From contig JAYTCK010000045.1 in assembly GCA_043736515.1 (NCBI GenBank), positions 1-49,553 on the forward strand: DNA of 49,553 nt. The letters run 5' to 3'. This stretch comes from a bacterium (GTDB lineage: Bacteria; Patescibacteriota; Minisyncoccia; Phycocordibacterales; UBA6899). The position numbers were made by a program, and so were the translations under genes. Below the pieces are notes generated by a model, which did not search any database, was not told where the DNA came from, and worked only from the letters and a program-made list of their open reading frames with translations. Positions 607 through 22,194 of this stretch are shown here, piece by piece. The first letter of the stretch is position 1; each line of letters begins with the position of its first letter.

Positions 607-1632
607 TTATATATTTTTAACAAACACTACTTCGGGCTCGAGTGTTATGTGTGTTTCATTGAGTGCACGCTCTTGTATGTGCGCAGCAAAACTTTGTATC
701 TCTTGTGCAGATGCGCCGCCATAGTTGATGAGAACCAATGCTTGTTCGCTCCATGTACCCACATTTCCTTCACGCACGCCACGCATAGAGAGGACGCGAT
801 CAATGATCCACGCAGCGGAAAGCTTCACATTCCCATTTTCGAGGGGATAGTTAGGCGAATCAGGAAAACGCACTAAAAAACTCGCCGCGATTTCTGCAGC
901 AACAATTGGGTTTTTGAAAAAAGACCCGGCGGTACCAAATTTCGTGAGGTCAGGAAATTTGCACCCACGTATCGTAAGTATTGCACTCCGCATATCCGCA
1001 AGTGAGTTTATTGGTTTTATATCCCTCGCATAAGTTTCAATGTCTTTGTACCCAAGCGATAGCGTGCCTTTTTGTGAAAGCAGAAAAGCCACGCGAAGCA
1101 CAATAAGATCTTTGCCTGTGTCGCGTTTAAAAATGCTTTCACGATAGCCGAACTGTACATCTGCTGTAGCGATGCGTCGCACGGTATCCGCTTTTCTGTC
1201 ATACGCTTCGATCCACTCGACCCGTTCGCAAACTTCTACTCCGTACGCACCGATATTCTGCACAACTGACGCACCAACAGAGCCGGGTATTCCCGAAAGA
1301 TTTTCAAGCCCAAACAGTTTATGCTCCACACTCATTGCAACAAAGGTGTCCCACGTTACACCCGCATCGACAACGGCGCACAGTGAATCTCCTTTTGCCT
1401 CCCACAAAATACCTTCACTATGCATGTGGATGACGAGTCCTGAAAAACCCGAATCAGGGATAAGCACATTTGATCCTCCACCGAGCACTAAAAGTGGGAG
1501 TTTATTTTGTTTGGCAAACTGTACTGCCTCTCGTGCGTCTTCGGTGGTAGTAACAGGAACGTAGTAACCAGCAGGTCCACCAACTTTAAGCGTCGTATAA
1601 GGTGCCAGCAAAATGTTTTCTCGCATAATCAT
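607..1632 (-). CDS. murB: UDP-N-acetylenolpyruvoylglucosamine reductase
   Basis: Motifs TTLKVGGPA, LGGGSNVL, GIPGSVGASVVQNIGAYG, FGYRESIFK, GTAGSFFKNP, QALVLINYG, LEPEV. Confidence 0.95.
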   Translation of the reverse strand: MIMRENILLAPYTTLKVGGPAGYYVPVTTTEDAREAVQFAKQNKLPLLVLGGGSNVLIPDSGFSGLVIHMHSEGILWEAKGDSLCAVVDAGVTWDTFVAMSVEHKLFGLENLSGIPGSVGASVVQNIGAYGVEVCERVEWIEAYDRKADTVRRIATADVQFGYRESIFKRDTGKDLIVLRVAFLLSQKGTLSLGYKDIETYARDIKPINSLADMRSAILTIRGCKFPDLTKFGTAGSFFKNPIVAAEIAASFLVRFPDSPNYPLENGNVKLSAAWIIDRVLSMRGVREGNVGTWSEQALVLINYGGASAQEIQSFAAHIQERALNETHITLEPEVVFVKNI

Positions 1633-1678: not shown

Positions 1679-1709
1679 AAAACAACCTCTCAAATTGAGA
1701 GGTTGTTTT
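1679..1709 (-). terminator. Intrinsic terminator after the O-antigen-ligase/TPR gene
   Basis: Inverted repeat AAAACAACCTCTC-aaatt-GAGAGGTTGTTTT. Confidence 0.85.
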
Positions 1710-1724
1710 TTGACTGTCATCAAT

Positions 1725-3911
1725 TTAGTTCGATGCTTGGATCTGCCGGATCAGCTGATCTCCCTGTTCCTTCAAGCTGGCATCCAGGCTAATTCCCTTC
1801 TCGACGGCCTCGATAGCTTTCTGCTTTTGTCCAAGCTGTGCGTATCCGCCGGCAAGCGAAAGGTAATCACGTGCTACAGCCTGACCTTGTGCGATCTTTT
1901 CGTTAAGGATTGCAATCAATTTATCAGAATATCCGCCGATGCCGTATGCGTTTATCACGCGGCTATCAAACGCAGCTGATGATGTTCCTACGATAGCATC
2001 CGCTTCATTGGGCTTCTTCTGATAGATCAGCGCGACAGCGTAGGCAATCTTTGCTTCACCATTTTCTGGGACAAGGTCGTAGGCAATTTTTGCCGTTGCT
2101 TCAGCGTCAGCATAACGCTGCATCGCAACATAGGTCATTGAAAGATCCAGATACGTTGATTGGCGCCTAGGTGAAAGCTCGATCGCTTTTTCAAAATGCG
2201 TGAGTGCCTTGTCATACTGACCAAATCGGGCATAAAACATTGCGGCGAACGACTGTGTGCGCAAATTGTCCGGATCATCCTTAAGCGCAAGATCGAATTG
2301 CTCATTCGCGAGATCATAAAATTGCTGTCGGAGGGGTTCGGGTACTCGAGGATCGAGCGTCTGGAATGAGAGCTGAATGATCTGCTCGCGTGCCTCTCCT
2401 GTCCCAAAGCGATCTGGACTGACCACATCAGCGAGAGTAATCTTCTTGCCACCTTTGCCGTCGTCTACAAGTACACCTTCAGGGCGTATGCCATTGATGA
2501 GTGCGATGTTCGCATTGATATTGCGAATATTGATGAAGTAAATCATACCCACAGTAATGGCGACCACGATAGCTCCGACGATAGCAAAGTCCCCGGGCTC
2601 CATTGCATCATCTTTTTTGTGCTTGTGGGTAACAGCCTTCTCTTTCTCGGGGTTGGGCGCCTCAAGTGTGTGGAGGTATGCGAGCGCTCCAAAGAAGAAG
2701 ATGTAGCTGGTCAGGTTGTCGAACACAAAGATATTGTGAATAAAATACCCCGCGAGCATGCCCGTGAGAATACTTCGTTCAACTACCGTAAAATGGTGCT
2801 TACGCGAAAACCATAGATAGTAGATTGCTGCCCCAAATAGTGAGAGGTACGAAAGTATACCGAGCGCGCCTCCCGCAATCATCCAATCGAAGAATACATT
2901 GTGCGAGCGATCAAACCATGGCTCCTGATTATACATTTGCGGATTGTAGTGTTTGGAGAATACATAGAGGAAATTGTCCTGACCCCAACCCAAGACAGGG
3001 CGCTCTTTAAAACCTTCCCATGACATCTTCCAGATCATAAAGCGGGAATTGGTAGTCTTGTCTGCAAGCGAAATACCTGCCATACGAGAAAGTGTCGGAC
3101 TTGATTGAATGAACTCTGATTGTCTAAATGTGATAAACAGCGCAACGAGTGCGACCATTCCCACCAAACCCCCGATGGCGTATTTTTTAAGGGTTTTGTG
3201 TTCCTTATCGAAAAACGCAATAAGGAGGAGCGTGAGTGTCACACCGCCGACAACGGAAAGAATCGTACCGCGAGTACCGGTGTAGTAGAGAATGACGAGG
3301 TTGAGGGCTGCAGCGACAGGATAGAGCCAATGTAGTCCTTTTTGTTTGGAAGAGCGAAAGTAAAGAAAGATCGCAATGAATGCGTGGAAAAACATGTAAA
3401 TCGCAAGGTAGGTTGAATTGCCGAATGTTGCATCAACGCGGCCATGCATTTCGGTTTTCCCCGCAATTTGCGTAAACGCATAAATGACGACAATGAGCGA
3501 AGCCCCGAGTGATGTTCGCCAAAACCAGTTCCATATTTCTTCAGTGAGCAGTACAGAGCCTGCGATGACAAAGTAAAGAAAGAGGTGCACATGGGTGATA
3601 AGCCCTTCCATGCGCTCGTAATTAGACCAAAAACTGCGATATGGGTTCGCACCGAGAAAATCGGCGAGCGCAATGACACAGAGAAATGTGCCAGCTGCAC
3701 CTAAAATCCAAGAAAACTTCGGACGATACGTCGCATCGAGAAACATAAGAAGCACCCATGCGCCGAGCATTATTTCAACCAAAATACGAAAAGTGAAGTT
3801 CTTGCCCGTAATGAAGGGAAAAAACATCGTCTCTGCAACCAAAAGACAAATAAAAGGCGTGGCAAAGAAACACGCAAGTACAGTAAATCGTAGAATATCA
3901 CGTAATAGCAT
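1725..3911 (-). CDS. O-antigen ligase (Wzy_C)-family membrane protein with C-terminal TPRs
   Basis: About 12-13 hydrophobic segments; TGTRG, SRFMIW, RPVLGWG, RSHNVFFD (conserved His) motifs; TPR-like C-terminus (ALTHFEKAIELSP, AIEAVEKGISLD). Start placed at MLLRD (3911) because a TATAGT hexamer lies 7 nt upstream; the ORF track starts at 3947. Confidence 0.85.
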   Translation of the reverse strand: MLLRDILRFTVLACFFATPFICLLVAETMFFPFITGKNFTFRILVEIMLGAWVLLMFLDATYRPKFSWILGAAGTFLCVIALADFLGANPYRSFWSNYERMEGLITHVHLFLYFVIAGSVLLTEEIWNWFWRTSLGASLIVVIYAFTQIAGKTEMHGRVDATFGNSTYLAIYMFFHAFIAIFLYFRSSKQKGLHWLYPVAAALNLVILYYTGTRGTILSVVGGVTLTLLLIAFFDKEHKTLKKYAIGGLVGMVALVALFITFRQSEFIQSSPTLSRMAGISLADKTTNSRFMIWKMSWEGFKERPVLGWGQDNFLYVFSKHYNPQMYNQEPWFDRSHNVFFDWMIAGGALGILSYLSLFGAAIYYLWFSRKHHFTVVERSILTGMLAGYFIHNIFVFDNLTSYIFFFGALAYLHTLEAPNPEKEKAVTHKHKKDDAMEPGDFAIVGAIVVAITVGMIYFINIRNINANIALINGIRPEGVLVDDGKGGKKITLADVVSPDRFGTGEAREQIIQLSFQTLDPRVPEPLRQQFYDLANEQFDLALKDDPDNLRTQSFAAMFYARFGQYDKALTHFEKAIELSPRRQSTYLDLSMTYVAMQRYADAEATAKIAYDLVPENGEAKIAYAVALIYQKKPNEADAIVGTSSAAFDSRVINAYGIGGYSDKLIAILNEKIAQGQAVARDYLSLAGGYAQLGQKQKAIEAVEKGISLDASLKEQGDQLIRQIQASN

Positions 3912-3948
3912 GGGATTTACTATATAGGGTAAATACGATGAGCGCAAA

Positions 3949-4656
3949 TTACATCACTAAGGACGAGTCGAGGCGTTTGTAGCCAGTATTTTGGCTTAGC
4001 TCCTCAAGCGCGTGGGCGCCCATGCCGGCAGTGCGAGCGAAGACGAAGAGCGCTTTGGCGGCAGCGGGTCGCATACCAAATGAAAGCGTGGCAGCAGCAA
4101 ATGCACCGTCTACATTGAGGGGAAGTTTCTTGCCCTTGGACTCATGGAGCGCCGCTTCAATAGCATAGGCTTTCTCAAACGGTGCGAGTGAAACCCCTGA
4201 TGCCTTTGCTTTTGAATAAATGAGCGTGGCGCGGGGATCTTCATCTTTATAGATTCGATGACCGAAGCCGGGGATATTTTTCTTGGCACTCATATATTCC
4301 GCAACTATCTCGCGTGCACCACCTTCTCGGGCGAGCATGTGCGCAGCAGCTTCCCCTGCTCCACCGTGCGCTTCCCCCATGGCGAGCATGCCGGCAGCCA
4401 TCGCAGTGTGAACCGAATTTCCCGAAGCCACACTTATACGCGGCACGTATGCAGAAGGTGTTTCAATGCCATGTTCGGCGGCAGCAACAAGCAGCGTATC
4501 GAGAAGTGCACGCTCGCCAAGAGTGGGCAGCTTTCCGCTGTACAACAAAAAAATAACTTCAGTGAAGGTATGAGTCTTCATCAGCTCTGTCATCTTCACG
4601 CCGTAAATAGTATGTTCCTCCTTTTCAGACTTACTAATCTTTGTTTCAAATTTCAT
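3949..4656 (-). CDS. Citryl-CoA lyase-like protein (citrate synthase fold, short form)
   Basis: 235 aa; motifs AAAEHG, EAHGGAG, IPGFGHRIYKDEDPR (catalytic His), LNVDG (catalytic Asp); N-terminus FETKIS resembles the Ccl/ACL lyase module. Confidence 0.8.
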   Translation of the reverse strand: MKFETKISKSEKEEHTIYGVKMTELMKTHTFTEVIFLLYSGKLPTLGERALLDTLLVAAAEHGIETPSAYVPRISVASGNSVHTAMAAGMLAMGEAHGGAGEAAAHMLAREGGAREIVAEYMSAKKNIPGFGHRIYKDEDPRATLIYSKAKASGVSLAPFEKAYAIEAALHESKGKKLPLNVDGAFAAATLSFGMRPAAAKALFVFARTAGMGAHALEELSQNTGYKRLDSSLVM

Positions 4657-4662
4657 AGATGT

Positions 4663-5565
4663 CTACTTACCTGCTAATTTTTTGAGTATATCAACAATGT
4701 CTTCCGGAGTCTGTGCAATGTGTGCACCTGCAGCTTTCAGTGCTGCGATCTTAGTGGACGCCTTACCTTTATCGCCCTCGATGATCGCCCCTGCGTGTCC
4801 GAGTGCCGTCCCCCACGGTAATGACTCCGCAAAGATTCCCGCGATGAGCGCGATAACCGGTTTTGTGATTTCTTTCGCAATAATCGCACTGGCGAGCGTG
4901 TCTTCATATGTCCCTCCCACTTCTCCAAACACGACAATTGCTTTTGTTTCAGGATCTTTTTCAAATAGCAGGGCAATATCGCGAAAGTCGCTTCCAATAA
5001 GCGGGTCCCCTCCGGTACCGATTATGGTGCTTTGTCCGATACCATTTTCCGTGAGCATCCGCGAGATCTCCGCTGTCATCCCCCCGCTCTTTGAGATCAC
5101 CCCAACTGATCCTTTCAAAAAAATCTTATCTGCAAGGCCCGATGAACCAATGCTTCCAATCTTGGAGTTCCCTGGCGAGAGTATCCCCACAGATGACGGC
5201 CCCACAATACGTACGCCGTTGTTTCGAGCGAGTGCAATCAGTCGTGCGACATGCAGTATGGGAACTCGTTCACTCAAAATGTTGATCAGGGGAATATTCG
5301 CCGCAATAGATTCTTCTCCCGCGGCACCAACAAATTTTCCTGGCACGGCGATGAGGGCAGTATTAATCTCAGGAAATTTTTTGACCGCCTCGGCGACCGT
5401 GTTGAAGATGGGAACTCCTTCCGGTGTCACTTCACCTCCCTTTCCTGGAGTAACACCGGCCTCCACCTTGGTTCCGTACGCAAGCATTTCACGAGCAGCA
5501 CGCGAGCCTTCTTTGCCGGTGATGCCCTGTACGACCACCCTGGTATTTTTATTAACGAGAATCAT
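4663..5565 (-). CDS. Citryl-CoA synthetase/ATP-citrate lyase alpha-like subunit (SucD fold, CoA-binding)
   Basis: VVVQGITGKEG, GVTPGKGG, IVGPSSVG, SKSGGM (ACL-type; SucD usually SRSGTL), GTGGD, GEVGG and phospho-His motif GHAGA. Confidence 0.85.
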   Translation of the reverse strand: MILVNKNTRVVVQGITGKEGSRAAREMLAYGTKVEAGVTPGKGGEVTPEGVPIFNTVAEAVKKFPEINTALIAVPGKFVGAAGEESIAANIPLINILSERVPILHVARLIALARNNGVRIVGPSSVGILSPGNSKIGSIGSSGLADKIFLKGSVGVISKSGGMTAEISRMLTENGIGQSTIIGTGGDPLIGSDFRDIALLFEKDPETKAIVVFGEVGGTYEDTLASAIIAKEITKPVIALIAGIFAESLPWGTALGHAGAIIEGDKGKASTKIAALKAAGAHIAQTPEDIVDILKKLAGK

Positions 5566-6620
5566 ATTTGCTCTTTCATAAGTTTCATTAAGCGTACCGC
5601 TGATTCTGCCATAGAAATTTCTGATCCGAACACATGCATGTTATATCCTTCGTTCGCGACAACTTCCATAAGCATTGCTCTCGCCTCTTCTTGTCTCGGG
5701 CCATCACGACGAATCACGATGGGGTAGGTGGGCTTTGGGGTGACCTTGCGCAAACCATCCACGAACCCGGACATTGTTTCAAATATATCTGTAAAGTTTG
5801 CCGTGCCACCGACAACCCATACTCCCTTTAAATTTGGCTGTCCGAGCACGCGCATCGTCAGTTCCTCAACGACCTGCCTCTTCGGGTTTCCTGAATACTC
5901 GACATAGTTTGCGGGCTTTCCACCCGAGCGCATGAGAATGTCGATGTTGAGCATTGATGCTCCGCCCCCTGAGGCGATTACGGCAATGTCTCCGCCAAGT
6001 TCGATAAATGGCCGCTCATTTGTTTCTTTGAGTGCATCATCGTAAATCACTTTTGCATCACCCGCAACAACACTGCCGTCGGCAAACACAAAGAGCGGAT
6101 TGATTTCGGCCATCAGTACTCCCTCTTCACAAAAAAGTTTCCAAAGTTTGTTCACGAGTAGAAAAACATCGTCCGTAATGGGTTCACCAAATGCTTGAGT
6201 GAGCGCTGAATGGGAAAGTCCCGCAAGAATATCAATAGGAATAATTTTTGCATTATGGACACCCGTCCCTCCCCGAGCATTGAGTGCAAGCACGGGAGAA
6301 CGATACGACGTAGAGTACGAAAAACTTACGTACATTTCTGTTTCTGGAACAATCACTTCTTCGGCGAGAAGTAGGGCGGGCAAATATCCGTCAATTGGGA
6401 GCGCAAAAAGCTTTTGTTTTACAGCCACGAATTCTTCGGCGCTTTCAACGAGAACAATCCCCCCTTTTGCTTTTCTGTCACTTGCAGGAACTTGCGACTT
6501 AAGCATGAGCGGGAACGAAAGTGCGGTTTTTTGGGTTTCGGGATGAATTAACTCAAACGCGGGTACTGCAATACCGTATTTTTCAAAAAGCGCCTTCCCT
6601 TCATGTTCGCATATCTTCAT
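5562..6620 (-). CDS. Citryl-CoA synthetase/ATP-citrate lyase beta-like subunit (ATP-grasp plus citrate-binding domain)
   Basis: EHEGKALF and RKAKGG, EINPL, DAK; C-terminal GGGASM, NYVEYSGNP, GGTANFTDI and RRDGP match the ACL citrate-binding domain rather than SucC (NGAGLAM, NFLDVGG). Confidence 0.85.
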   Translation of the reverse strand: MKICEHEGKALFEKYGIAVPAFELIHPETQKTALSFPLMLKSQVPASDRKAKGGIVLVESAEEFVAVKQKLFALPIDGYLPALLLAEEVIVPETEMYVSFSYSTSYRSPVLALNARGGTGVHNAKIIPIDILAGLSHSALTQAFGEPITDDVFLLVNKLWKLFCEEGVLMAEINPLFVFADGSVVAGDAKVIYDDALKETNERPFIELGGDIAVIASGGGASMLNIDILMRSGGKPANYVEYSGNPKRQVVEELTMRVLGQPNLKGVWVVGGTANFTDIFETMSGFVDGLRKVTPKPTYPIVIRRDGPRQEEARAMLMEVVANEGYNMHVFGSEISMAESAVRLMKLMKEQI

Positions 6621-6643
6621 ACTTTATATACAACTCGGCTATA

Positions 6644-8134
6644 TCAGAATTGGAAGTAAATAAATTGCTGGCTTTCAGTTTTTGCAAAAATAATAATGAG
6701 GAGCAGCGCTGTCGCAACCAGGAACCACTGAATGCCGTATCGCGCAAACCGATTTTCTATTGCAAAAATACGACTCACATAATTATGAATGTAGAGATAT
6801 TCGGCGACAAGAAGGAGGCCAATGCCCCCAAGCGCCCAATAAAAATCATAATCTGATTTACCCATAAAAACGTATTCCTGATAAAAGTCTGTGCGACTCA
6901 TGCCTTCCGGGAACGCATCCCACCCCGTAAACATTTGCCCAATGATGTGGAAAGCGCTGCCGATGTTTTCAGCACGAAAAAAGACCCATGTAAGACAGAT
7001 AAGGGTGAACGTCAGAAGCGTTTGGAGGAGTATGACAAACGAGCGGACAAAAACGGACGCGCCATTCATGCTCACGGCAACGCCAAGCTTCTTCATAAGT
7101 GTTTCGAGCACCAGATAACATCCATTGAGCCCGCCCCAAATCACGTATGTCCAATTTGCTCCATGCCAAAGACCGGAAAGAAGAAATGTCACCATGAGAT
7201 TCCAGATATGACGACGCTCTCCCTTTTTACTTCCACCCAGCGGCACATACACATAATCTTTAAACCATGTGGAAAGCGAAATATGCCACCTCCTCCAGAA
7301 CTCACCGACTGAGCGCGAGAAATACGGCTGGCGAAAATTTTCCATAAGTGAAAATCCCATCACGCGTGCGGAGCCAATCGCAATATAGGAGTACCCCGCA
7401 AAATCACAATAGATCTGAAATGCGAAAAAGACGGTGGCGATAACAAAGCTGGGTGCAAGATACTCCAAGGGATGGTCATAAACCTGATCCACAAATGGTG
7501 CGAGATTGTCCGCGATGAAGAGCTTCATAAAAAAACCGTACACCATGAGCCGCAGGCCCTTCCCGATACGCCCAAATTCGACGTTATGCTTCTCGCGAAA
7601 TTGGTGGAGTAGGTTTTGTGGTCGCTCGATGGGACCTGCAACGAGCTGCGGATAGAACATCACATACGTAGCTAGGATGAGAAAGTTCTTCTCTGGCTTC
7701 TGGTTGCCGCGATACACCTCAATGGTATAGCTCAGGCTTTGGAAGACGTGAAATGAGAGACCGATGGGGAGAACGAGTGAAAGTGCTTCAAGCGAATAGT
7801 TCCAGTGCAAAAAGTCAGCGAGTCCGGCGAGGTTGGCGTTAAAAAAATTAAAATACTTAAAAATAAAGAGCGCGCCAACATTCGCAATAATACTTGCAAC
7901 TAAAAATTGTCTCCTTCTCTTGCCCTCTGCATTCGCAATGGCAATTCCCGCAAAGTAATCTACGGTGATCGTAAACGCCAAAATGAGAATGAACGCCGGA
8001 ATGAACGCCATGTAGAAATAGCAGCTCGCAGCAAGGAGCCACAATACGCGGTATCGATACGGCAGCATAAAATACATGGCCGTAACGATGGGGAAAAAGA
8101 TGAGAAAATTAATGGAGTTGAACAGCATAGACAA
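6644..8134 (-). CDS. MBOAT O-acyltransferase (AlgI/PatA/DltB-like)
   Basis: MLFNS start; LPIGLSFHVFQSLSY, PQLVAGPIER, QIYCDFAGYS, ENFRQPY, FWRRWHISLSTWFKDY, SGLWHGANWT (catalytic His), FIYFQF end. Confidence 0.95.
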   Translation of the reverse strand: MSMLFNSINFLIFFPIVTAMYFMLPYRYRVLWLLAASCYFYMAFIPAFILILAFTITVDYFAGIAIANAEGKRRRQFLVASIIANVGALFIFKYFNFFNANLAGLADFLHWNYSLEALSLVLPIGLSFHVFQSLSYTIEVYRGNQKPEKNFLILATYVMFYPQLVAGPIERPQNLLHQFREKHNVEFGRIGKGLRLMVYGFFMKLFIADNLAPFVDQVYDHPLEYLAPSFVIATVFFAFQIYCDFAGYSYIAIGSARVMGFSLMENFRQPYFSRSVGEFWRRWHISLSTWFKDYVYVPLGGSKKGERRHIWNLMVTFLLSGLWHGANWTYVIWGGLNGCYLVLETLMKKLGVAVSMNGASVFVRSFVILLQTLLTFTLICLTWVFFRAENIGSAFHIIGQMFTGWDAFPEGMSRTDFYQEYVFMGKSDYDFYWALGGIGLLLVAEYLYIHNYVSRIFAIENRFARYGIQWFLVATALLLIIIFAKTESQQFIYFQF

Positions 8135-8137
8135 TAA

Positions 8138-9247
8138 TTAGCGTGACGGGCACAGTGCATTATTTTTTAACAGCTCATCTTTTGTGTACTGATAGAGTAT
8201 CTGTGCCATAGCGCGATGTCCCTCCTCGTTAAAATGCCATGAGCAATCTACGCTGAGACACTTGCCATAACGCGCTCGGGCTTCACCGAGTTGATCCGCA
8301 GGATTAAAAACAGGAATTTGTTCTCCTGAAAGAAAATCAATAAGCTTAGTCATGCGTGGGTTATCCTTCCATGCACCTCGCTTCGCATAATCAGTCAATT
8401 CGCTTGGAACCATCACAACAGCAAAATGTTGCCCGTTTGCTGTGACGAGCTTACTAAACTTCGAAAAAATTTCGAACGTAAAAGTGTAATATTGGGAATC
8501 CTCTCCCATCTTCTCCGCTAATCCATCTTGGCTCTGCTTCGGCGGGAGCACGGTGGCACGATCGCCCTCAAGAATCCCGATCAACTCAAGTGTGTTTATG
8601 AATATTTCATTAGCAATGAGCTTGTGAAAGACAAACTTCGGGAGTTCAAATTTGAGTAAAAATTCTTTTAATCCTACCGCGCGACGCCCTTCGCCATAAT
8701 GCTCAAGATCAAATCCCGCTTTAAGGAGATTGTCGTCATAATCAGCCGTAAAAAAAACAAGCACATAGTCTGGGTCAAAGGGAGTAATCTTCTTCTTATA
8801 CGTTTGATATTCAGTAAATGTTCCGGCACTTCCCACGCCAAAATTCATAACCTCAAAACGCGTCTTTCCACACACACCACTCGTATTCAGTGTCGTCTCA
8901 AGAAGCTCAACAAAGTTTCGATAATAATCCACTTGTAGTGCTGCAAGTCCCGAATCCCCGAGCATCGCAATTCGGATCGTACTCGTCGGCTTCTCGATCG
9001 CCATCTCATCGCCGATGTACCCAAGACTATTGGTGCGGATATAGTTTTTTCTCGCGGAAAGCGCATCCCATGCATATCCATCATAGTTCTTCACATGAAT
9101 TGAACCTACGTCAGGGTCGGTGCGCAGAAGCGGAAAGGCAGTCTTCCCGATAACGCGAATTCCTGCTTCCCAATATGCCAGGGTCGCAAAAACGACCAGT
9201 CCGACAATGAGCATTTTTTTGACCACAGTTTTCCCCATATGTTGCAT
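8138..9247 (-). CDS. SGNH/GDSL-family protein with N-terminal membrane anchor (probable O-acetylation partner of the MBOAT)
   Basis: N-terminal TM; TNSLG, RIAMLGDS (block I), MNFGVGS, PDYVLV, HFNEEGH (block V). Start may be 9238. Confidence 0.85.
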   Translation of the reverse strand: MQHMGKTVVKKMLIVGLVVFATLAYWEAGIRVIGKTAFPLLRTDPDVGSIHVKNYDGYAWDALSARKNYIRTNSLGYIGDEMAIEKPTSTIRIAMLGDSGLAALQVDYYRNFVELLETTLNTSGVCGKTRFEVMNFGVGSAGTFTEYQTYKKKITPFDPDYVLVFFTADYDDNLLKAGFDLEHYGEGRRAVGLKEFLLKFELPKFVFHKLIANEIFINTLELIGILEGDRATVLPPKQSQDGLAEKMGEDSQYYTFTFEIFSKFSKLVTANGQHFAVVMVPSELTDYAKRGAWKDNPRMTKLIDFLSGEQIPVFNPADQLGEARARYGKCLSVDCSWHFNEEGHRAMAQILYQYTKDELLKNNALCPSR

Positions 9248-9382: not shown

Positions 9383-10018
9383 CTAAAGCGTTGTGGTATA
9401 TTTGGTTATCTCGACAAGCGCGCGATGAATTTCCTTCACGGGGTCGATGTGCTCAAACGTAGGCAAGATCTCAAGTGGAATCTTGGAGACTTCGTCGACC
9501 GCGGCGAGCGCGACGATCCAACTTGTTGGATCAATATTTGAGTATGTGGATTGCCAGTTCGTAAGCCACGTGCGCACATCAGCATTGTTGGCAATGCATG
9601 CAAGGTCAAAATAGTCTTTGTATTCTTCTCTTCCGCATATCGCAGAAAGTTTCATAATCGTGATGTCCTCTAGGCTCACCATGCGAAACGAGTCAACAAG
9701 AGTGACAGGCTTAAACAGAGGATCAAATCGAGATATGAAAGAAACCTTTACTCCGTCGATATTGCACCACAGTGTATTCTTTTCTTCGAAGATTATTTCG
9801 AGGCGCGCCGCGCCAAACAGCTCGCTTAATCGTCGACGCAGTTTTTCCACATCAATATCCTCAAGGATAAAATAATCAAGATCAGCACTCTTTCTATGCC
9901 CGATGAGCAAAGCAAGTGCCGTGCCTCCTGCAAGATAATATTGCTCGGGGAGTGATGTGAATACAGTCTTTGCGATTGCCAACATCTCAGGACTGACGGT
10001 CTCGTGATGAAGTGTCAT
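9383..10018 (-). CDS. AbiEii/AbiGii-family nucleotidyltransferase (type IV TA toxin-like, DUF1814/MenT-like)
   Basis: YYLAGGTALALLIGHRKSADLDYF signature; later MKLSAICGREEYKDYFD (K..A...R...KD..D). Confidence 0.9.
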   Translation of the reverse strand: MTLHHETVSPEMLAIAKTVFTSLPEQYYLAGGTALALLIGHRKSADLDYFILEDIDVEKLRRRLSELFGAARLEIIFEEKNTLWCNIDGVKVSFISRFDPLFKPVTLVDSFRMVSLEDITIMKLSAICGREEYKDYFDLACIANNADVRTWLTNWQSTYSNIDPTSWIVALAAVDEVSKIPLEILPTFEHIDPVKEIHRALVEITKYTTTL

Positions 10019-10248
10019 GAAAAAAGATAGGTCTTAAGATAGTGATATTTTCGTTTTGAAATTGCAGTGGTTTTCATTTCTTCAAATACATGTTTCACCG
10101 TAGCTCTATCATATTTTTTAATAAGCCATGAGATAAGAAAAATTCCCCCATACGAAAGTACGCGCTGCATGACAAATGAGTCCGGAAGCGTTGCGATCTT
10201 TTCGGGTTGAATATCCCAAAGCACTGTTTTTACATCGGGTGATTTCAT
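10015..10248 (-). CDS. Small DUF6922-like protein (putative cognate antitoxin)
   Basis: LWD..., FVMQRVLSYGG pattern; 4-bp ATGA overlap with the toxin gene. Start set at MKSPD (10248) because an extended -10 overlaps the longer ORF-track start. Confidence 0.7.
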   Translation of the reverse strand: MKSPDVKTVLWDIQPEKIATLPDSFVMQRVLSYGGIFLISWLIKKYDRATVKHVFEEMKTTAISKRKYHYLKTYLFS

Positions 10249-10254
10249 ATATTC

Positions 10255-10263
10255 ATTATACCA
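10255..10263 (-). promoter_or_regulatory. Extended -10 promoter, leaderless-type, for the TA pair
   Basis: TGG-TATAAT-GAATAT-ATG on the minus strand. Confidence 0.65.
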
Positions 10264-10311
10264 CAGTTTGAACAAAATAGGAATGTCACGAAAACTATTG
10301 AAGCCTCACTG

Positions 10312-10378: not shown

Positions 10379-11761
10379 ATGTCTACTTTTGCTGTCATTC
10401 TTGCGGGAGGCTCCGGTACGAGGCTGTGGCCCCTTTCCCGGAAAAACTTCCCAAAGCAGTTTTTGGATCTGTATGGAGACAAATCGCTGCTTCAGCACAC
10501 GTTCACGCGCATGGCAGAGCTAGCATCACCTGAAGGAGTCTATGCTGTCACCAATCAGGACCACTTCTACAATGTCCTCAATCAGCTCCGCGAAGTTTTC
10601 CCCGGCTTTCCCGAGGACCACATCATTGTGGAGCCCGAAGGTCGCAATACCTTCCCTGCAATCGTGCTTGCCCTGCGTACGCTTTCCGATCGTGATGCAA
10701 AAGGTAATGACCCCATCATTTTCACTCCCGCTGATGCTTATATCGCAAATGAGGAGGAGTATCGTGCCACACTCACTCTTGCGAGTCTTCATGCGGGAAA
10801 AGGTTTAGTTGTTGTAGGAATAACACCAACTTCCCCCGAAACGGGCTATGGTTATATTGAGGTTGGTGAGGATGCAGGCGGAATATTGCGCACAAGCGCA
10901 TTCCACGAAAAGCCTGATGCGGCTACTGCAGAGGCGTATCTCAATTCGGGGATGCATCTTTGGAACTCCGGACTGTATGTGGGCACGCATGACGCATTCC
11001 TTGCAGAAATTCTGGAGCACACACCCGAAGTGCACAAGCTGTACGAACAAGGATTCGCTGCACTTTCTGAAAATTTTGGCGCATTACCAAATCTTTCAGT
11101 TGACCACGCGCTCGCTGAGCGGTCACGCAACGTGTATGTTGCACAGGGAGCATTCGGATGGAGCGATGTTGGCTCGTTCGATGCGCTTGCAAAAGTACTC
11201 GAAGAGCGGGGAACTTCCTACCCCAAACACGTGAGCGTTGATTCGACGGGAATTTTTGTACACAGCGCAGAGGGCAGGCTGGTGGTAACAGTTGGCGTGG
11301 ACGACCTCGTCATTGTCGATCATCGTGATAGTCTCCTTATCCATAAAAAAGGGAGGAGCGATGAAGTTGGTGCTGTGCTCAAATCACTGATCGCTGCTGG
11401 ACACAAAGAAGCCGAGCATAATCTTCTTGTGCATCGGCCATGGGGCCAGTACCACGTGTTGATCGATTCGCCGAACTACAAAGTGAAGAAGATTGTAGTC
11501 TATCCCGGCGCAAAGTTAAGCCTCCAGTCGCACGAACATCGCGCAGAGCATTGGGTCGTCGTTCACGGCACCGCAGAAGCCACAGTGGGCGAAGATGTGC
11601 TTACCCTCAATGCAAATGAAAGCGCATACATCCCCGCCGGCACACAACACCGCCTTGCAAACCCCGGAAACATCAACCTTGAGATCGTCGAAGTACAAAC
11701 AGGCACCTACCTCGGCGAAGACGACATCAAACGCTACGAAGACAACTATAAACGCAGATAA
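10379..11761 (+). CDS. manC: Mannose-1-phosphate guanylyltransferase / mannose-6-phosphate isomerase
   Basis: ILAGGSGTRLWPLSRKNFPKQF, EPEGRNT, PETGYGYI, WNSG, GWSDVGS; C-terminal cupin RPWG, LSLQSHEHRAEHWVVV, EVQTGTYLGEDDIKR. Confidence 0.95.
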   Translation: MSTFAVILAGGSGTRLWPLSRKNFPKQFLDLYGDKSLLQHTFTRMAELASPEGVYAVTNQDHFYNVLNQLREVFPGFPEDHIIVEPEGRNTFPAIVLALRTLSDRDAKGNDPIIFTPADAYIANEEEYRATLTLASLHAGKGLVVVGITPTSPETGYGYIEVGEDAGGILRTSAFHEKPDAATAEAYLNSGMHLWNSGLYVGTHDAFLAEILEHTPEVHKLYEQGFAALSENFGALPNLSVDHALAERSRNVYVAQGAFGWSDVGSFDALAKVLEERGTSYPKHVSVDSTGIFVHSAEGRLVVTVGVDDLVIVDHRDSLLIHKKGRSDEVGAVLKSLIAAGHKEAEHNLLVHRPWGQYHVLIDSPNYKVKKIVVYPGAKLSLQSHEHRAEHWVVVHGTAEATVGEDVLTLNANESAYIPAGTQHRLANPGNINLEIVEVQTGTYLGEDDIKRYEDNYKRR

Positions 11762-11763
11762 TC

Positions 11764-11788
11764 AAAACACCGATCTTGTCGGTGTTTT
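11764..11788. terminator. Bidirectional intrinsic terminator between convergent genes
   Basis: AAAACACCGA-tcttg-TCGGTGTTTT. Confidence 0.85.
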
Positions 11789-11798
11789 TCTTTTTATC

Positions 11799-12557
11799 TT
11801 ACGAAAGCAGTATTGGTATTTTTTGTTTTATATTGGCATTTATGTTTACAATGTCGGGTCGTTTCTTCAAAAAATTAATGACATCTGAAGCAGCAAAATC
11901 ATTGTTCTCTAAATAAAGCGCGTCGTAGACCTCGCTGATCACTCGATAATCTTCTGGAGTATCAAGGGTGAGCCTCAGTTCCGGCCACAGCATCTCCCCT
12001 TTCGCCCGAAGCGCCAATATTTTATATCGCTTCGGGTCCGTCTTGATATGCACTGTCACATGCTCGCGCATTTCTGGGTGTGTTGCTTCGTTATACCCAT
12101 CTTCAAGTGCTTTTATCGTGAATACTGTTGCATCAAATCCGTCGGGTACGGGGGCATCCCCCATCTCATTTGAAACCAAATCAAAATTCCCTTCAAAAAG
12201 TTTAAGGATAAGATCGTCGACAATTCTGTGGTCAACGAGCGGACTGTCTCCCATGCCGCGGTACACGATATCTGCATCACAACTTTTTGCTGCTTCATAT
12301 ACGCGAGCGAGCACATCGGCTTCACTGCCGCGATAACATCGGTACTGACGCTCCGCGCAGAAGGTTTCGATCGCATCATCATTGGGATTGACCGTTGTGG
12401 CGATGATTATCTCATCAATGTATTTACTACGGCTGATACGCTCCACTATACGGGCGAGCACAGGCTCACCCGCAAGTGGCATGAGCACCTTGCCTGGAAG
12501 TCTCGTCGATCCCATGCGCGCGGAAATAGTGGCAATAGCACGTCTTCCGTTAATCAT
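11799..12557 (-). CDS. SpsF-like acylneuraminate cytidylyltransferase-family protein, copy 1
   Basis: ARMGSTRLPGKVL, RGSEADVLAR, REHVT, ELRLTLDTPEDY. Real start MINGRR (12557); the ORF-track extension overlaps the upstream gene. Confidence 0.85.
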   Translation of the reverse strand: MINGRRAIATISARMGSTRLPGKVLMPLAGEPVLARIVERISRSKYIDEIIIATTVNPNDDAIETFCAERQYRCYRGSEADVLARVYEAAKSCDADIVYRGMGDSPLVDHRIVDDLILKLFEGNFDLVSNEMGDAPVPDGFDATVFTIKALEDGYNEATHPEMREHVTVHIKTDPKRYKILALRAKGEMLWPELRLTLDTPEDYRVISEVYDALYLENNDFAASDVINFLKKRPDIVNINANIKQKIPILLS

Positions 12558-12558
12558 G

Positions 12559-13773
12559 TTATTTCTTATTAAAAAATGCGATGGTTTGTTGTAATATCTC
12601 TGCCTGTTTTTCCGCTCGTTCCCACTCCCAATAATTTGTCTTGAATGCGAGAATCTGTTGCTGTACTTTTTCCGCGACAGGACAGAGTCCGGGTTTCCAT
12701 GCTTGGAGGGTACCTTTATAGGTAGCCTTAATAACCTCTTCCTTGCCCGCAAAGTTCATCTCTTGGAACATTGGTTCTTGGTAAGTAAGTTTCCATGTCG
12801 CATAGATACCATCACCACCCAATTCTTTGAATTTCAGACGAAAATCAGCCCAAGAAACAGGTGCGTCGACGAGTCGTACGGCGAGCCCCCAATACACGTT
12901 TTTATATCCTTCTGGTGTGTACTGTGGCACAAGCCAGTCGCATCCTTTCATCGCCTTCATAAACAAGTTTGCCGCATCAATACGTCGCTCTACAAGTTCA
13001 TCCATGCGTTCGATCTGCCCAAGAACCACAGCTGCGCAAAGATCCGGCATGCGATAGTTATAACCCATTGAAGCGTGACGATTGTAATTTGGATTTTGAA
13101 TATCGTCTTTAGAAATCTTGCCTGCTTTTGCAGAAACCGACGCATAGCCAAGAACAGAAAATCGCCGCACACGATCTGCCGCATCGACATCATTCGTGCA
13201 CACCATTCCTCCTTCTCCGGCGGTAAGGTGTTTTGTGCTTTGAAAACTGAAGCTTGAGTAGTGCCCGATTGTACCAGCGAGCCGCCCTTTGTATTCCCCC
13301 AAAAAACACTGCGCATTGTCTTCAATGACTGCGAGGTTGTGCTTCTTTGCAATCTCCATAATGGGATCCATATCAGGTGAGAGTCCATAGAGTGCAACAG
13401 TAATGATGGCCCTTGTTCGGGGAGTAATTAATTTTTCAATCGACTTCGGGTCAATCTGTAATGTCTCTTCGATAACATCCGCAAACACCGGTACTGCATC
13501 CTGTTGCAACACCGCCATTGTTGTAGCAGCCATTGTTAGTGGGGGCACAATTACTTCATCACCAGCCCGAACGCCGGCTGCATACAGCGCAGAGTGGAGT
13601 GTCGCTGTGCCATTGATGTGCCCCACCGAATACTGTACCCCTATACGACCTGAAAAAGCTTCTTCTGCCCTCTTGAGCATTTTAGTATCACGCGGTCCTC
13701 GGAATTGAGAAAGAAGTACTTCTTTTACATATGCTTCTTCCTTTTCACTGATGCGTTTTATGTTGGGTTTCAT
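12559..13773 (-). CDS. DegT/DnrJ/EryC1/StrS PLP aminotransferase, copy 1
   Basis: NGTATLH, GDEVIVP, IEDNAQ, FSFQSTKHLTAGEGG (PLP Lys), GYNYRM. Confidence 0.93.
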   Translation of the reverse strand: MKPNIKRISEKEEAYVKEVLLSQFRGPRDTKMLKRAEEAFSGRIGVQYSVGHINGTATLHSALYAAGVRAGDEVIVPPLTMAATTMAVLQQDAVPVFADVIEETLQIDPKSIEKLITPRTRAIITVALYGLSPDMDPIMEIAKKHNLAVIEDNAQCFLGEYKGRLAGTIGHYSSFSFQSTKHLTAGEGGMVCTNDVDAADRVRRFSVLGYASVSAKAGKISKDDIQNPNYNRHASMGYNYRMPDLCAAVVLGQIERMDELVERRIDAANLFMKAMKGCDWLVPQYTPEGYKNVYWGLAVRLVDAPVSWADFRLKFKELGGDGIYATWKLTYQEPMFQEMNFAGKEEVIKATYKGTLQAWKPGLCPVAEKVQQQILAFKTNYWEWERAEKQAEILQQTIAFFNKK

Positions 13774-13794
13774 ATAGGTGTGATAACTTAAGCA

Positions 13795-14433
13795 TTACAG
13801 CAATTGTGTCACCGCGCCATAAGCGGGACGAAGCGAAAGATGACGATGCACATTAAAGCCGTTCTTGTTAATTTTCTTGGGATCGCTATACCGTCCAGTA
13901 TAAATACGGTCCCCGTTCTTGTCCTTGTCGCTACACCAAATGAAGTCATTTTTCCAGAGCAGTGCACCCTCATATAAATAATAATAGACAAAAAAAACAT
14001 ACGCAGTGAGCACCGCCGAGGGAAATTGTTCACCTTTTTTAAGTTTTCCCTCTATAATATCGGGTCTAACTCCACGTGTTTCCTTAATGACGTTCTTTCG
14101 GATAAGATACCATCGGTTTTTAAGCGTTGTGCTCTGTGCAAATTTTTCATTAAGATACCAATCCTGATTATAAAAGCAGGGTTCATTCTTTGCAGGATCA
14201 AATCCAAAGTAGGCGCGCATGTTGTTAAGCGTCAAAGGCTTTCCGTCTTTTGATTTTGTAACACCGAGTATCAGCAAATAATCCTTCGCTGCTTTGTTAA
14301 GCACTTGCGCATCGTAGTTTACTTTGGGAATAGTTAATGCTGGCGCCCCAATAAATTCACTTGCAATCAAGCTGAGCTCATCGGGCCCAATAAAATTTTT
14401 ACCCATTATTTTTTTTGCATCCTGCCAATTCAT
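13795..14433 (-). CDS. Hypothetical soluble protein (213 aa)
   Basis: Intact ORF, 1-bp gap from the upstream gene, protein-like composition (FYNQDWY, WYLIRK, GDRIYTG); no family confidently recognised. Confidence 0.75.
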   Translation of the reverse strand: MNWQDAKKIMGKNFIGPDELSLIASEFIGAPALTIPKVNYDAQVLNKAAKDYLLILGVTKSKDGKPLTLNNMRAYFGFDPAKNEPCFYNQDWYLNEKFAQSTTLKNRWYLIRKNVIKETRGVRPDIIEGKLKKGEQFPSAVLTAYVFFVYYYLYEGALLWKNDFIWCSDKDKNGDRIYTGRYSDPKKINKNGFNVHRHLSLRPAYGAVTQLL

Positions 14434-14434
14434 A

Positions 14435-14770
14435 TTATTTCTTTTCACTACTTAATTTAGTCATAAAATATTTTGCTCGATTTTGTATATGTTTATTTCC
14501 ATCCATTTCACTCCAGCGAACCAGCTCTGCCTCTTTCAGGAAATCAGTCAGTCCTAAGAGTAAAAACGTTTCGGGAGGAAGCGTAGCAGTAAGATCATAT
14601 TTTCGAAAAAGCTTTCCGATTGCGGTACGAAGATTTTGAGTACGAGTAACACCGCCCTCGCCGAGCTCACCAAACATTTCCATAGTCGTCGCAAAGACGA
14701 GGTGATTATACAAAATGCCCACCATTGCCTTCTCCTCTAGTTCGGTCAAATTCAAACTTTCTTTTTCCAT
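14435..14770 (-). CDS. Hypothetical protein (111 aa)
   Basis: Intact ORF with its own TGT-TAGGAT hexamer 7 nt before the ATG; no recognisable motif. Confidence 0.7.
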   Translation of the reverse strand: MEKESLNLTELEEKAMVGILYNHLVFATTMEMFGELGEGGVTRTQNLRTAIGKLFRKYDLTATLPPETFLLLGLTDFLKEAELVRWSEMDGNKHIQNRAKYFMTKLSSEKK

Positions 14771-14788
14771 GTCGATTATCCTAACACA

Positions 14789-15352
14789 CTATTTATTTTG
14801 CAAATAGAAGATTCCCTCCTGCCATAAAGCGACATCTCCCTTTTGTTGATATGCAGCAATACGCTCCAGCTCGGCGACAATAGCCTCTTCGTGGGTCTTA
14901 CTGTGAAATGAGGGGAATTTATACTCGGGGACCATTGTAAGTTCAATATTTACGTTCATATCACGCATGGCCTTCACAAAAGTGAGGAAAGCGCGATATT
15001 GATGAAACTCGGTTGTCACAAGGAGCAAACTTCTCCAACCGTGTTTTTGAGCAAGGTGAAGTGTGGATTCTGCTTCTTCCCGCGTGTGCGCTCCTGTCTC
15101 CTCCCAGACAATATGCTCTTCTGGTAAACCGAGCGCAACCAATTTTCGGATCAGTACGTGTGCGGGAAGGCTTCCGTATGCATGGTCGTGCGCACTGCTT
15201 GTCACCACAACCTTCGGAGCTAGCCCTAAATGATAGAGTTCCGCAACTTTAAGAGTACGGTGAAAGCGGTCCCCCGCTAGCAAAACGATAGCGTCGGCTT
15301 TTCGGGGCGCATCCGTCAAAAGCAATTTTTTTAATTCTTCAAATTCGTTCAT
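14789..15352 (-). CDS. YdcF/ElyC (DUF218) family protein
   Basis: ADAIVLLAG, ETGAHTREEA (S.NT.EN-like), LLVTTEFHQYRA. Start set at MNEFE (15352). Confidence 0.8.
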   Translation of the reverse strand: MNEFEELKKLLLTDAPRKADAIVLLAGDRFHRTLKVAELYHLGLAPKVVVTSSAHDHAYGSLPAHVLIRKLVALGLPEEHIVWEETGAHTREEAESTLHLAQKHGWRSLLLVTTEFHQYRAFLTFVKAMRDMNVNIELTMVPEYKFPSFHSKTHEEAIVAELERIAAYQQKGDVALWQEGIFYLQNK

Positions 15353-15360
15353 AAATAAAA

Positions 15361-15383
15361 CTAAGGGCACAGTGTGCCCTTAG
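15361..15383 (-). terminator. Intrinsic terminator-like hairpin after the NeuB-family gene
   Basis: CTAAGGGCAC-agt-GTGCCCTTAG followed on the minus strand by TTTTATTT. Confidence 0.7.
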
Positions 15384-15389
15384 TATGCT

Positions 15390-16457: not shown

Positions 16458-16560
16458 GGTATTACCTTCCAAAAATGAATTAATGACTACAAATCTATAC
16501 CGCATCCTACACAGAACAGCAACATTCGCAACAAGAGAAAGGTGACAAATTCACTACTAT

Positions 16561-17112: not shown

Positions 17113-17135
17113 GGTTACGCTTCACAAAACACTCT

Positions 17136-18143: not shown

Positions 18144-18173
18144 AGTGTGTTTTATATTACGGACATGAGGCGT

Positions 18174-22123: not shown

Positions 22124-22194
22124 AACTCAAACCTCTTTCTCTAGGTTGCAGTATTATGTTATGGTACATCGAGTTTACGGTGAAATACTATAAA

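Follow-up and report, generated by a model that had tools for sequence, protein, structure and literature searches.

The 49,553-nucleotide (nt) contig JAYTCK010000045.1 of assembly GCA_043736515.1, from a member of the Patescibacteriota, was analysed over its whole length (hereafter the window). It carries a block of six genes on a single strand, named g1 to g6 in reading order, in which three genes predicted to cleave citrate (g3, g4 and g5, the cassette) are embedded between an SGNH–MBOAT gene pair (g1 and g2) and a gene for a Wzy_C protein (g6) (Table 1). According to the open reading frame (ORF) list the genes are separated by 3 nt (g1–g2), 23 nt (g2–g3), -4 nt (g3–g4, where the start of g4 overlaps the stop of g3), 6 nt (g4–g5) and 1 nt (g5–g6). 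The public gene call on an identical Logan contig (L001; L numbers designate loci throughout) lets g6 begin at an ATG that widens the last gap to 37 nt, and gives g2 a start that shortens it to 474 amino acids (aa) and leaves 69 nt between g1 and g2; the long form of g2 is favoured because its orthologue in L082 has 494 aa and a 1-nt gap. The hairpin that closes the block has a predicted folding energy of -21.6 kcal/mol (z = -4.9 versus shuffled sequence), and the T-tract 3' of its stem is interrupted. An earlier note, made from the DNA letters alone, had described six tightly packed genes on one strand closed by a strong hairpin, and the ORF list, the domain assignments and the hairpin energy confirm that description. 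A single transcript across the six genes is plausible; promoter and terminator patterns inside the block are no more numerous than in shuffled sequence and are uninformative on sub-operons. Independent contigs (L082/L083, L087, L094, L095) show the six genes in the same order, with g3 identity down to 63–69%, and the arrangement is therefore neither due to chance nor an assembly artefact. Recent horizontal acquisition of the cassette was also considered and left no sign, the GC content and third-codon-position GC content (GC3) of g3–g5 lying inside the range of the neighbouring genes.

Table 1. Positions of the six-gene block, its flanking features and the nonulosonate cluster in the window
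Feature	Position	Strand	Remarks
g1, SGNH/GDSL-fold protein	8138-9247	(-)	369 aa (ORF list)
g2, MBOAT	6644-8134	(-)	496 aa (ORF list)
g3, citryl-CoA synthetase large (beta) subunit-like	5562-6620	(-)	352 aa
g4, citryl-CoA synthetase small (alpha) subunit-like	4663-5565	(-)	300 aa
g5, predicted citryl-CoA lyase	3949-4656	(-)	235 aa
g6, polytopic Wzy_C protein with C-terminal TPR	1725-3947	(-)	740 aa
Intrinsic-terminator-like hairpin closing the six-gene block	1679-1709	(-)	14-bp stem, 3-nt loop
MurB	607-1632	(-)	Next gene past the terminator; NF000755, 316 bits vs cutoff 277
Nonulosonate (Pse/Leg-like) cluster	11799-22108	(-)	CTP_transf_3, GFO, DegT, PseB-like, GNAT, NeuB, DUF218, DegT, CTP_transf_3 (Pfam)
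PseB-like	17136-18143	(-)	
PseH-like GNAT	16561-17112	(-)	~8 kb upstream of the block
NeuB	15390-16505	(-)	

The cassette shows the typical features of a two-step system for citrate cleavage, in which a citryl-coenzyme A (CoA) synthetase (CCS) is paired with a citryl-CoA lyase (CCL), and this assignment is supported by domains, solved relatives and motif conservation alike. The large subunit g3 combines an ATP-grasp_2 domain (PF08442) with a Citrate_bind domain (PF16114; 4e-21, 75.7 bits against a cutoff of 26.8) and has no PF00549 match in Pfam. Its closest solved structures are the large subunit of the Hydrogenobacter citryl-CoA synthetase (6HXQ_B) and the beta subunit of the Chlorobium ATP-citrate lyase (ACL; 6HXJ_A), proteins of the CcsA and ACL-beta type than which g3 is ~40–75 residues shorter. 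The motifs ASGGGAS (residues 216–222), ANFT (274–277) and RRDGP (304–308) of g3 are common to the ACL and CCS alignments, whereas the alignment of the Thermus succinyl-CoA synthetase (SCS) beta subunit differs from g3 at GGGAS, ANFTD and RRxGP, all three. Residue conservation in the cassette proteins was counted over 106–126 distinct Patescibacteria homologues; among the 106 for g3, K41, R49, E172, N174, D188 and the ASGGGAS, ANFTD and RRDGP motifs are invariant or nearly so, the citrate-pocket motifs being kept in 97–106 of them. The residues of human ACLY that match these motifs, including N346, T348, R379 and the GGGAS loop, are those that bind citrate in the ACLY structures. The pocket motifs of g3 align with residues 343–349 (SIANFTN) and 378–382 (RRGGP) of ACLY (numbering from PMC9504748).

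The small subunit g4 consists of a CoA_binding (PF02629) and a Ligase_CoA (PF00549) domain and carries a GHAGA phosphohistidine loop, whose H257 is kept in 123 of 123 homologues. The predicted lyase g5 covers only positions 167–351 of the Citrate_synt family (PF00285), i.e. it is devoid of the N-terminal part of citrate synthase (CS), but it retains the His/His/Asp/Arg set of the citrate synthase active site: the catalytic H97 (AHGGA), H133 (GFGHRIYK) and D183 (NVDG) are kept in 110 of 110 homologues and R208 in 108 of 108. Its closest solved structure is a citryl-CoA lyase (6HXP_A, 1e-40). Since g4 and g5 are separate genes, and are unfused in all loci surveyed, the system would correspond to a CCS with a separate CCL rather than to a fused ACL. 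The earlier note had recognised the citryl-CoA synthetase and lyase type of the three genes, and its labels 'ACL beta-like' and 'ACL alpha-like' should be amended accordingly. A frameshift or an assembly error is seen in the Logan contig of L085, where the alpha-subunit homologue (11062–11968) is broken into ORFs of 221 and 87 aa.

The public annotation of the large subunit by JGI reads 'succinyl-CoA synthetase beta subunit', and it could be argued that the substrate has been mis-assigned, and that a succinyl-CoA (or malyl-CoA) synthetase here accompanies a short citrate synthase. SucC models indeed match g3 in its N-terminal half, and g4 is most similar to SucD. However, g3 has in its C-terminal half the citrate-binding domain of ACL and not the CoA-ligase domain of SCS, with GGGAS, ANFTD and RRxGP motifs of the ACL type, and all SCS and malate-CoA ligase models of NCBIfam score far below their cutoffs on the cassette proteins, with 125 bits for the SucC (SCS-beta) model on g3 (cutoff 370) and 278 bits for the SucD model on g4 (cutoff 336). 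The truncated g5, with CCL as its best match, fits poorly with a citrate synthase. In addition, sequences from candidate phyla radiation (CPR) bacteria group with CCS and CCL on phylogenetic trees, and their SCS and CS annotations were judged incorrect (preprint 10.1101/2022.10.25.513756). A different substrate is thus most improbable.

Upstream of the cassette, g2 is by its domain and conserved residues an MBOAT-family membrane O-acyltransferase of the AlgI/PatA-like kind (PF03062, 7e-33), and the histidines of its WRRWH and WHGANW motifs (H284 and H324) are kept in 11 of 11 homologues. The WHGANW histidine aligns with the GFWHG histidine of DltB, the sole solved relative of g2 (7e-25). A function as DltB in the D-alanylation of teichoic acids was rejected, the DltB model giving 147 bits (cutoff 375) and DltA, DltC and DltD being absent from the annotation of the window. 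The preceding gene, g1, matches the GDSL family of Pfam weakly and under the cutoff (17.8 bits). It belongs to a small family of 24 clusters, many members of which have precomputed GDSL matches (PF13472/PF00657), with an N-terminal transmembrane helix, four conserved cysteines, an invariant G97-D98-S99, NDxxDN, H338 and G343, and a near-invariant H344. The AlphaFold model of g1 (pLDDT 76) retrieves GDSL/SGNH esterases, acetyl-xylan esterases among them, as its top Foldseek matches in the PDB, with the Neisseria PatB (7tjb) at rank 43. On account of the GDSL matches of the family, the invariant GDS and C-terminal histidine, and the predicted fold, g1 can be assigned to the SGNH proteins, which bears out the identity proposed in the earlier note. 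It is likely that g1 is the membrane-anchored extracytoplasmic partner of the MBOAT, in a role similar to that of PatB or AlgJ. Such a pairing of an MBOAT carrying a catalytic histidine with an adjoining anchored SGNH protein resembles PatA/PatB (peptidoglycan), AlgI/AlgJ/AlgX (alginate) and PatA1/PatB1 (secondary cell-wall polymer); unlike PatB and AlgJ, g1 falls into a Patescibacteria-specific family, and models of PatB or AlgJ do not match it significantly. The g1–g2 pair is retained in L082, L087, L088, L089, L090 and L092. In L092 the (truncated) gene 3' of the MBOAT is neither g3 nor g6, and the contigs of L091 and L093 end at or just past the SGNH gene and are uninformative with respect to the cassette. 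At the other end of the block, g6 joins a Wzy_C domain (PF04932, 1.5e-21) to several TPR families and resembles O-antigen ligases and polymerases. MurB is the next gene after its orthologues in L008, L082 and L088, and g6 is therefore tied more to MurB than to the citrate module.

The genomic context of the cassette was surveyed across the phylum by an alignment-based scan of species-representative genomes, which yielded 80 loci in lineages of the Parcubacteria and Microgenomates types; flanking genes were clustered, the clusters named by Pfam and NCBIfam, and the resulting profiles searched over +/-10 kb of each locus. The database holds about 2000 relatives of g3 at E <= 1e-10, and the organism-named matches among the best 120 of these ~2000 are all from Patescibacteria. 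The g3–g4–g5 order is colinear in every one of the 80 species-level loci where the contig reaches far enough, and in about 140 non-redundant loci overall. Among the complete or high-quality genomes that have the cassette are CP066686.1 and OY969413.1. Within 3 kb of the cassette, 63 of the 80 loci have one or more partners with an amino-sugar or acetyl function. The most frequent are a GlmU-like sugar-1-phosphate nucleotidylyltransferase/acetyltransferase of archaeal type (26 loci; 254 bits against an NCBIfam cutoff of 292), GlmS (25 loci, in 18 of them within 300 bp and nearly always immediately upstream; TIGR01135, 787 bits) and the UDP-N-acetylglucosamine (UDP-GlcNAc)-binding YvcK (17 loci; TIGR01826, 320 bits). 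GNATs of two families follow (15 loci, 10 for family a and five for family b), together with PseB (10), DegT (five) and MBOAT (four). For GlmS, a single-copy gene in a genome of ~1 Mb, only ~0.6% of loci would be expected by chance. The density of acetyltransferase genes, counted per 100 kb, falls from 21.5 in the first kb to 7.2 in the second and 0.8 in the third, and stays at 0–2 out to 10 kb; a replicate of 60 non-redundant metagenome loci gave 23.7, 6.8, 2.2, 0 and 0, and then 0–6.6 per 100 kb. Within 1 kb of the cassette such genes are thus at least 10-fold denser than at 2–10 kb, and the second data set agrees. The earlier note had called for a survey of this kind, and the outcome is a strong, repeated association with sugar enzymes that consume acetyl-CoA, MBOATs in three layouts included.

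In ten species loci (including L006, L010, L011, L013, L020, L022 and L023) the YvcK (GlmR-like) gene directly follows the lyase gene, and in many of these GlmS lies directly upstream of the cassette, which suggests a regulated UDP-GlcNAc unit of which the cassette is a part. GlmU provides the only acetyl-CoA-dependent step of the UDP-GlcNAc pathway. The arrangement, in which GlmS, YvcK and a GlmU-like gene flank the cassette in many Parcubacteria, is akin to the GlmS–GlmU–GlmR(YvcK) supply and control of UDP-GlcNAc in Firmicutes, with the difference that citrate-cleavage genes are absent from the latter and that the GlmU-like protein beside the cassette belongs to the archaeal type.

It is conceivable that the cassette has merely hitch-hiked into these neighbourhoods: it would be a general source of acetyl-CoA and oxaloacetate, or the remnant of a tricarboxylic acid (TCA) cycle, and its adjacency to envelope genes would have no functional meaning in compact genomes that are rich in them. 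Patescibacteria genomes are indeed small and dense and their envelope genes numerous, LeuRS, Sua5 and Trp/TyrRS recur as neighbours of the cassette too, and both the loci that lack a detected partner and the phylogenetic non-independence of the counts, to which we return below, point in the same direction. Nevertheless, unlike acetyl-CoA users (LbH GlmU-like proteins, two GNAT families, a hexapeptide transferase and MBOATs) fill the adjacent slot, and they differ by deep lineage and in order, for which inherited synteny alone is a hard explanation. The steep drop in density within 2 kb in both data sets, and the movement of the cassette as a unit between two acetyltransferase junctions that is described next, likewise argue against hitch-hiking, which we consider unlikely.

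The order SGNH–MBOAT–cassette–Wzy/TPR(–MurB) occurs in L082/L083, L087, L094 and L095, with g3 63–86% identical to that of the window. L084 (g3 86%) groups with the same clade; its contig begins at g3, which leaves the SGNH–MBOAT side out of view. On the g3 tree the window-type loci form one clade that is nested in the group of L002, L004, L005, L008, L085 and L086. The sister-group order is CTP-transferase–GFO–DegT–x–PseB–(GNAT)–cassette–NeuB–DUF218, and in this group the cassette is located inside the nonulosonate sugar cluster, directly past its acetyltransferase. In the window's own nonulosonate cluster (11.8–22.1 kb) PseB, GNAT and NeuB are contiguous, with no cassette between them, and synteny with L002, L005, L008, L085 and L086 identifies the GNAT–NeuB junction of the window as the slot that the cassette holds in the sister lineages. 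L088, from the same genome and contig as L005, displays SGNH–MBOAT–Wzy/TPR–MurB with nothing between MBOAT and Wzy. The simplest reading is that the cassette moved once, over ~10 kb and within one same-strand glycan island, and exchanged its place between PseB/GNAT and NeuB for one between MBOAT and Wzy. The link to the nonulosonate GNAT that had been proposed in the earlier note thereby gains substance, since in sister lineages the cassette directly follows PseB and the PseH-like GNAT. The same note had allowed that the adjacency might be unique to this genome, with the ACL genes elsewhere in relatives, which would have spoken against its proposal; the outcome is mixed, in that the adjacency is kept in one clade but appears to be a derived state that arose by relocation in the same glycan island.

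MBOAT adjacency has arisen several times and in three layouts. In addition to type I, that of the window clade, there is a type II (cassette–MBOAT–partner of ~390 aa) in L027, L047, L051, L053 and L142, scattered among relatives without MBOAT, and a type III in L090, where the MBOAT is divergently transcribed and the cassette is 30–39% identical to that of the window. Neither phmmer nor hmmsearch related g1 to the ~390-aa proteins that follow the MBOAT in type II, and the two layouts hence use different partner proteins. The type-II proteins (~370–420 aa; for instance L027 14163–15272, L047 16400–17578 and L053 6654–7919) have no Pfam or NCBIfam match and are probably a different extracytoplasmic partner.

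These data bear on the question of whether the cassette is in the operon specifically to feed O-acetylation by the MBOAT and SGNH proteins, as the earlier note had proposed. The immediate adjacency with gaps of 23 and 3 nt and one terminator, the persistence of the layout across the clade down to 63% g3 identity, and the recurrence of MBOAT adjacency in three layouts are what such a coupling predicts. On the other hand, an MBOAT adjoins the cassette in only four of the 80 species loci, the sister lineages hold the cassette beside PseB and GNAT, an orthologous SGNH–MBOAT–Wzy–MurB unit exists without it, and the window itself has one cassette and several potential users of acetyl-CoA, the PseH-like GNAT included. 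A dedicated coupling is therefore quite unlikely. The proposed supply for surface-glycan acetylation finds backing in the association with envelope-sugar acetylation; it is the 'dedicated' nature of that supply which the rarity of MBOAT neighbours and the SGNH–MBOAT pairs without a cassette speak against.

Based on the sequence evidence, the cassette rather probably serves as a citrate-to-acetyl-CoA supply for the N- and O-acetylation of envelope sugars in general, and not for the MBOAT exclusively. According to this model, g3 and g4 would convert citrate, ATP and CoA to citryl-CoA, ADP and Pi by way of a phosphohistidine on g4, and g5 would split citryl-CoA into acetyl-CoA and oxaloacetate, the three proteins forming a compact cytoplasmic module. 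The acetyl-CoA would be consumed by neighbouring transferases, which in the window may be the MBOAT g2 and the PseH-like GNAT, and in other lineages GlmU-like enzymes that accompany GlmS and YvcK, GNATs (also those of the PseH-like type from nonulosonate pathways), MBOATs and hexapeptide acetyltransferases. In the window clade the cassette would be co-expressed with g2, which would pass acetyl groups across the membrane to the anchored g1, and g1 would transfer them to an exported glycan handled by g6, possibly peptidoglycan or a wall-linked polymer. What was observed is the order of the genes, their domains, the conserved residues, the neighbourhood pattern across the phylum and the relocation; from these we infer the substrate and the direction of the reaction, the joint transcription, the donor role of acetyl-CoA for the MBOAT, and supply as the reason why the linkage was selected.

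A number of points weigh against this reading. The sequence of g4 is nearer to the SCS alpha subunit (255 bits) than to the small subunit of CCS (181) or to ACL alpha (155), and the best NCBIfam model of g5, citryl-CoA lyase NF004869, scores 203.2 bits, just below its cutoff of 212. Three related SGNH–MBOAT pairs (L088, L089, L092) have no adjoining cassette, and 17 of the 80 loci are without a detected partner within 3 kb; in two of these the gene directly after the lyase encodes a hexapeptide acetyltransferase (L014) and a UDP-sugar dehydrogenase (L037), respectively. The loci are phylogenetically related and their counts are not independent events. Moreover, the partner hidden Markov models were built from the neighbours, and distant acetyltransferase subfamilies may escape them, which would overstate the distance decay, a bias that does not affect the single-copy GlmS. 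A conserved citrate transporter was not found near any cassette when 559 neighbour proteins were screened for recurrent multi-pass membrane proteins; the only recurrent transporter was Nramp, in Microgenomates, the other membrane proteins, one MFS protein in L005 apart, belonging to the glycan machinery (PMT-type GT-C, Wzx, GT4, BacA, SecY). Even the use of acetyl-CoA as donor by AlgI/PatA-type MBOATs is something that the field assumes. Finally, at least some CPR bacteria possess pyruvate:ferredoxin oxidoreductase (PFOR) and acetyl-CoA synthetase (ACS) for making acetyl-CoA (PMC7143001), and the module may therefore be dispensable for supply. That CCS/CCL is the main or only acetyl-CoA route in many Patescibacteria, with citrate from the host or the environment as an obligate precursor of the acetyl groups in UDP-GlcNAc, nonulosonates and O-acetylated glycans, is a further and doubtful extension.

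The direction of the reaction deserves separate consideration. The reaction of ACL and of CCS–CCL runs near equilibrium, and in Desulfobacter ACL has been described as an ATP-forming citrate synthase. The cassette might likewise run in reverse, from acetyl-CoA, oxaloacetate, ADP and Pi to citrate and ATP, for substrate-level phosphorylation in a fermenter, on which CPR bacteria depend (PMC7143001). This would require a steady supply of oxaloacetate and waste carbon as citrate, an ADP-forming acetyl-CoA synthetase would be a simpler route to the same end, and it would leave unexplained why acetyl-CoA consumers, GlmS and YvcK are persistently found beside the cassette; we regard the reverse direction as very unlikely. 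A role in carbon fixation is likewise unlikely, because the TCA and reductive TCA (rTCA) cycles are largely absent from the phylum (review PMC13293708). The annotation of the 49.5-kb window contains no 2-oxoglutarate:ferredoxin oxidoreductase, fumarate reductase or other rTCA genes.

The closest parallel to the cassette proteins is found in CcsA/CcsB and Ccl of Hydrogenobacter thermophilus (6HXQ, 6HXP), with the same domain set on three separate polypeptides and with the phosphohistidine, citrate-pocket and His/His/Asp lyase residues kept in the cassette. Unlike Hydrogenobacter, where two-step citrate cleavage belongs to the reductive TCA cycle, the cassette host is not an autotroph, and its phylum is largely without TCA and rTCA cycles (PMC13293708); the context of the cassette is the acetylation of amino sugars and glycans, g3 is shorter than CcsA, and g4 is nearer to SucD than to CcsB. 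With ATP-citrate lyase (AclAB, ACLY) the cassette shares homologous domains and the same predicted overall chemistry. The proposed role, cytosolic acetyl-CoA from imported citrate for acetylation and biosynthesis, parallels that of eukaryotic ACLY, whereas the fusion of the lyase to the alpha subunit in ACL has no counterpart in the separate g4 and g5. To our knowledge no two-component O-acetylation operon with an acetyl-CoA-generating module has been described, and a literature search likewise found none; a full-text literature search retrieved no published description of a linkage of the cassette to GlmS, GlmU, YvcK, GNAT, Pse or MBOAT genes, or of an acetyl-CoA supply to the envelope. While an enrichment of aclAB in Saccharimonadia has been reported, coupling to acetylation was not addressed (PMC12577380), and a 2026 review of the phylum mentions neither citrate nor acetyl-CoA (PMC13293708). 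The enzymes are known and their CPR homologues have been mentioned phylogenetically (10.1101/2022.10.25.513756); what is new is the functional and genomic context.

Several further features of the surveyed loci were recorded. In 8–10 Microgenomates loci (L062–L080) the gene for the Nramp divalent-metal transporter lies 1.5–3 kb upstream of the cassette, before the GlmU-like gene and the cassette; its recurrence may reflect inherited synteny or metal-citrate uptake. An MFS_1 gene in L005 (12812–13993, plus strand), immediately after the lyase, is the only transporter candidate that adjoins a cassette. Several Microgenomates-type records of metagenome-assembled genomes with the cassette (e.g. 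L042, L062–L065, L068, L071, L072) bear the title 'uncultured Gammaproteobacteria bacterium', and 'uncultured Candidatus Saccharibacteria' is the title of many Parcubacteria-type records; judged by gene content and nearest relatives, these submitter labels look unreliable.

In the remainder of the window, a gene for an AbiEii-family toxin with a small upstream ORF (9383–10275, minus strand) separates ManC from the SGNH gene. The same slot is taken up by genes for AAA_14/DUF4143 ATPases in L082 and L091, and it looks like a variable insertion site in the glycan island. The nonulosonate cluster beyond it has two DegT and two CTP_transf_3 genes and possibly represents two nonulosonate branches; the ORF at 11799–12752 overlaps DegT by ~190 nt and its Pfam match begins only at residue 74, the true start probably being internal. 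The stretch from 22156 to 49553 is one glycan island with genes for an amidase, Capsule_synth, two C-methyltransferases, an aldo-keto reductase, FkbM and other methyltransferases, a Wzx-type flippase (26326–27846), a GDP-mannose 4,6-dehydratase (30103–31236) and GT4, GT2 and PMT-like transferases, as well as three ORFs without a Pfam match (22156–23409, 33594–35354 and 47502–48830). Candidates for GlmS and GlmU in the window were rejected: the product of 37445–39307 is an AsnB-like amidotransferase and no true GlmS, and that of 45720–46466 a plain sugar-1-phosphate nucleotidylyltransferase.

A large part of bacterial diversity belongs to the Patescibacteria, almost all of which are uncultured, and the sources of their central metabolites are poorly understood. 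If the proposed supply role is correct, it would account for how wall sugars are N- and O-acetylated in organisms that have no TCA cycle and, in many cases, no obvious pathway to acetyl-CoA, and citrate would become a candidate host-derived nutrient. It would also mean that bacteria use the ancient CCS/CCL enzymes anabolically and outside autotrophy, in parallel to eukaryotic ACLY, and would lend indirect genomic support to acetyl-CoA as the donor of AlgI/PatA-type MBOATs. Many public annotations of the cassette genes as 'succinyl-CoA synthetase', 'citrate synthase' or 'hypothetical' would need correction. Were the cassette to be the main or only route to acetyl-CoA, it would amount to a metabolic dependency on the hosts that could be exploited for cultivation by supplying citrate.

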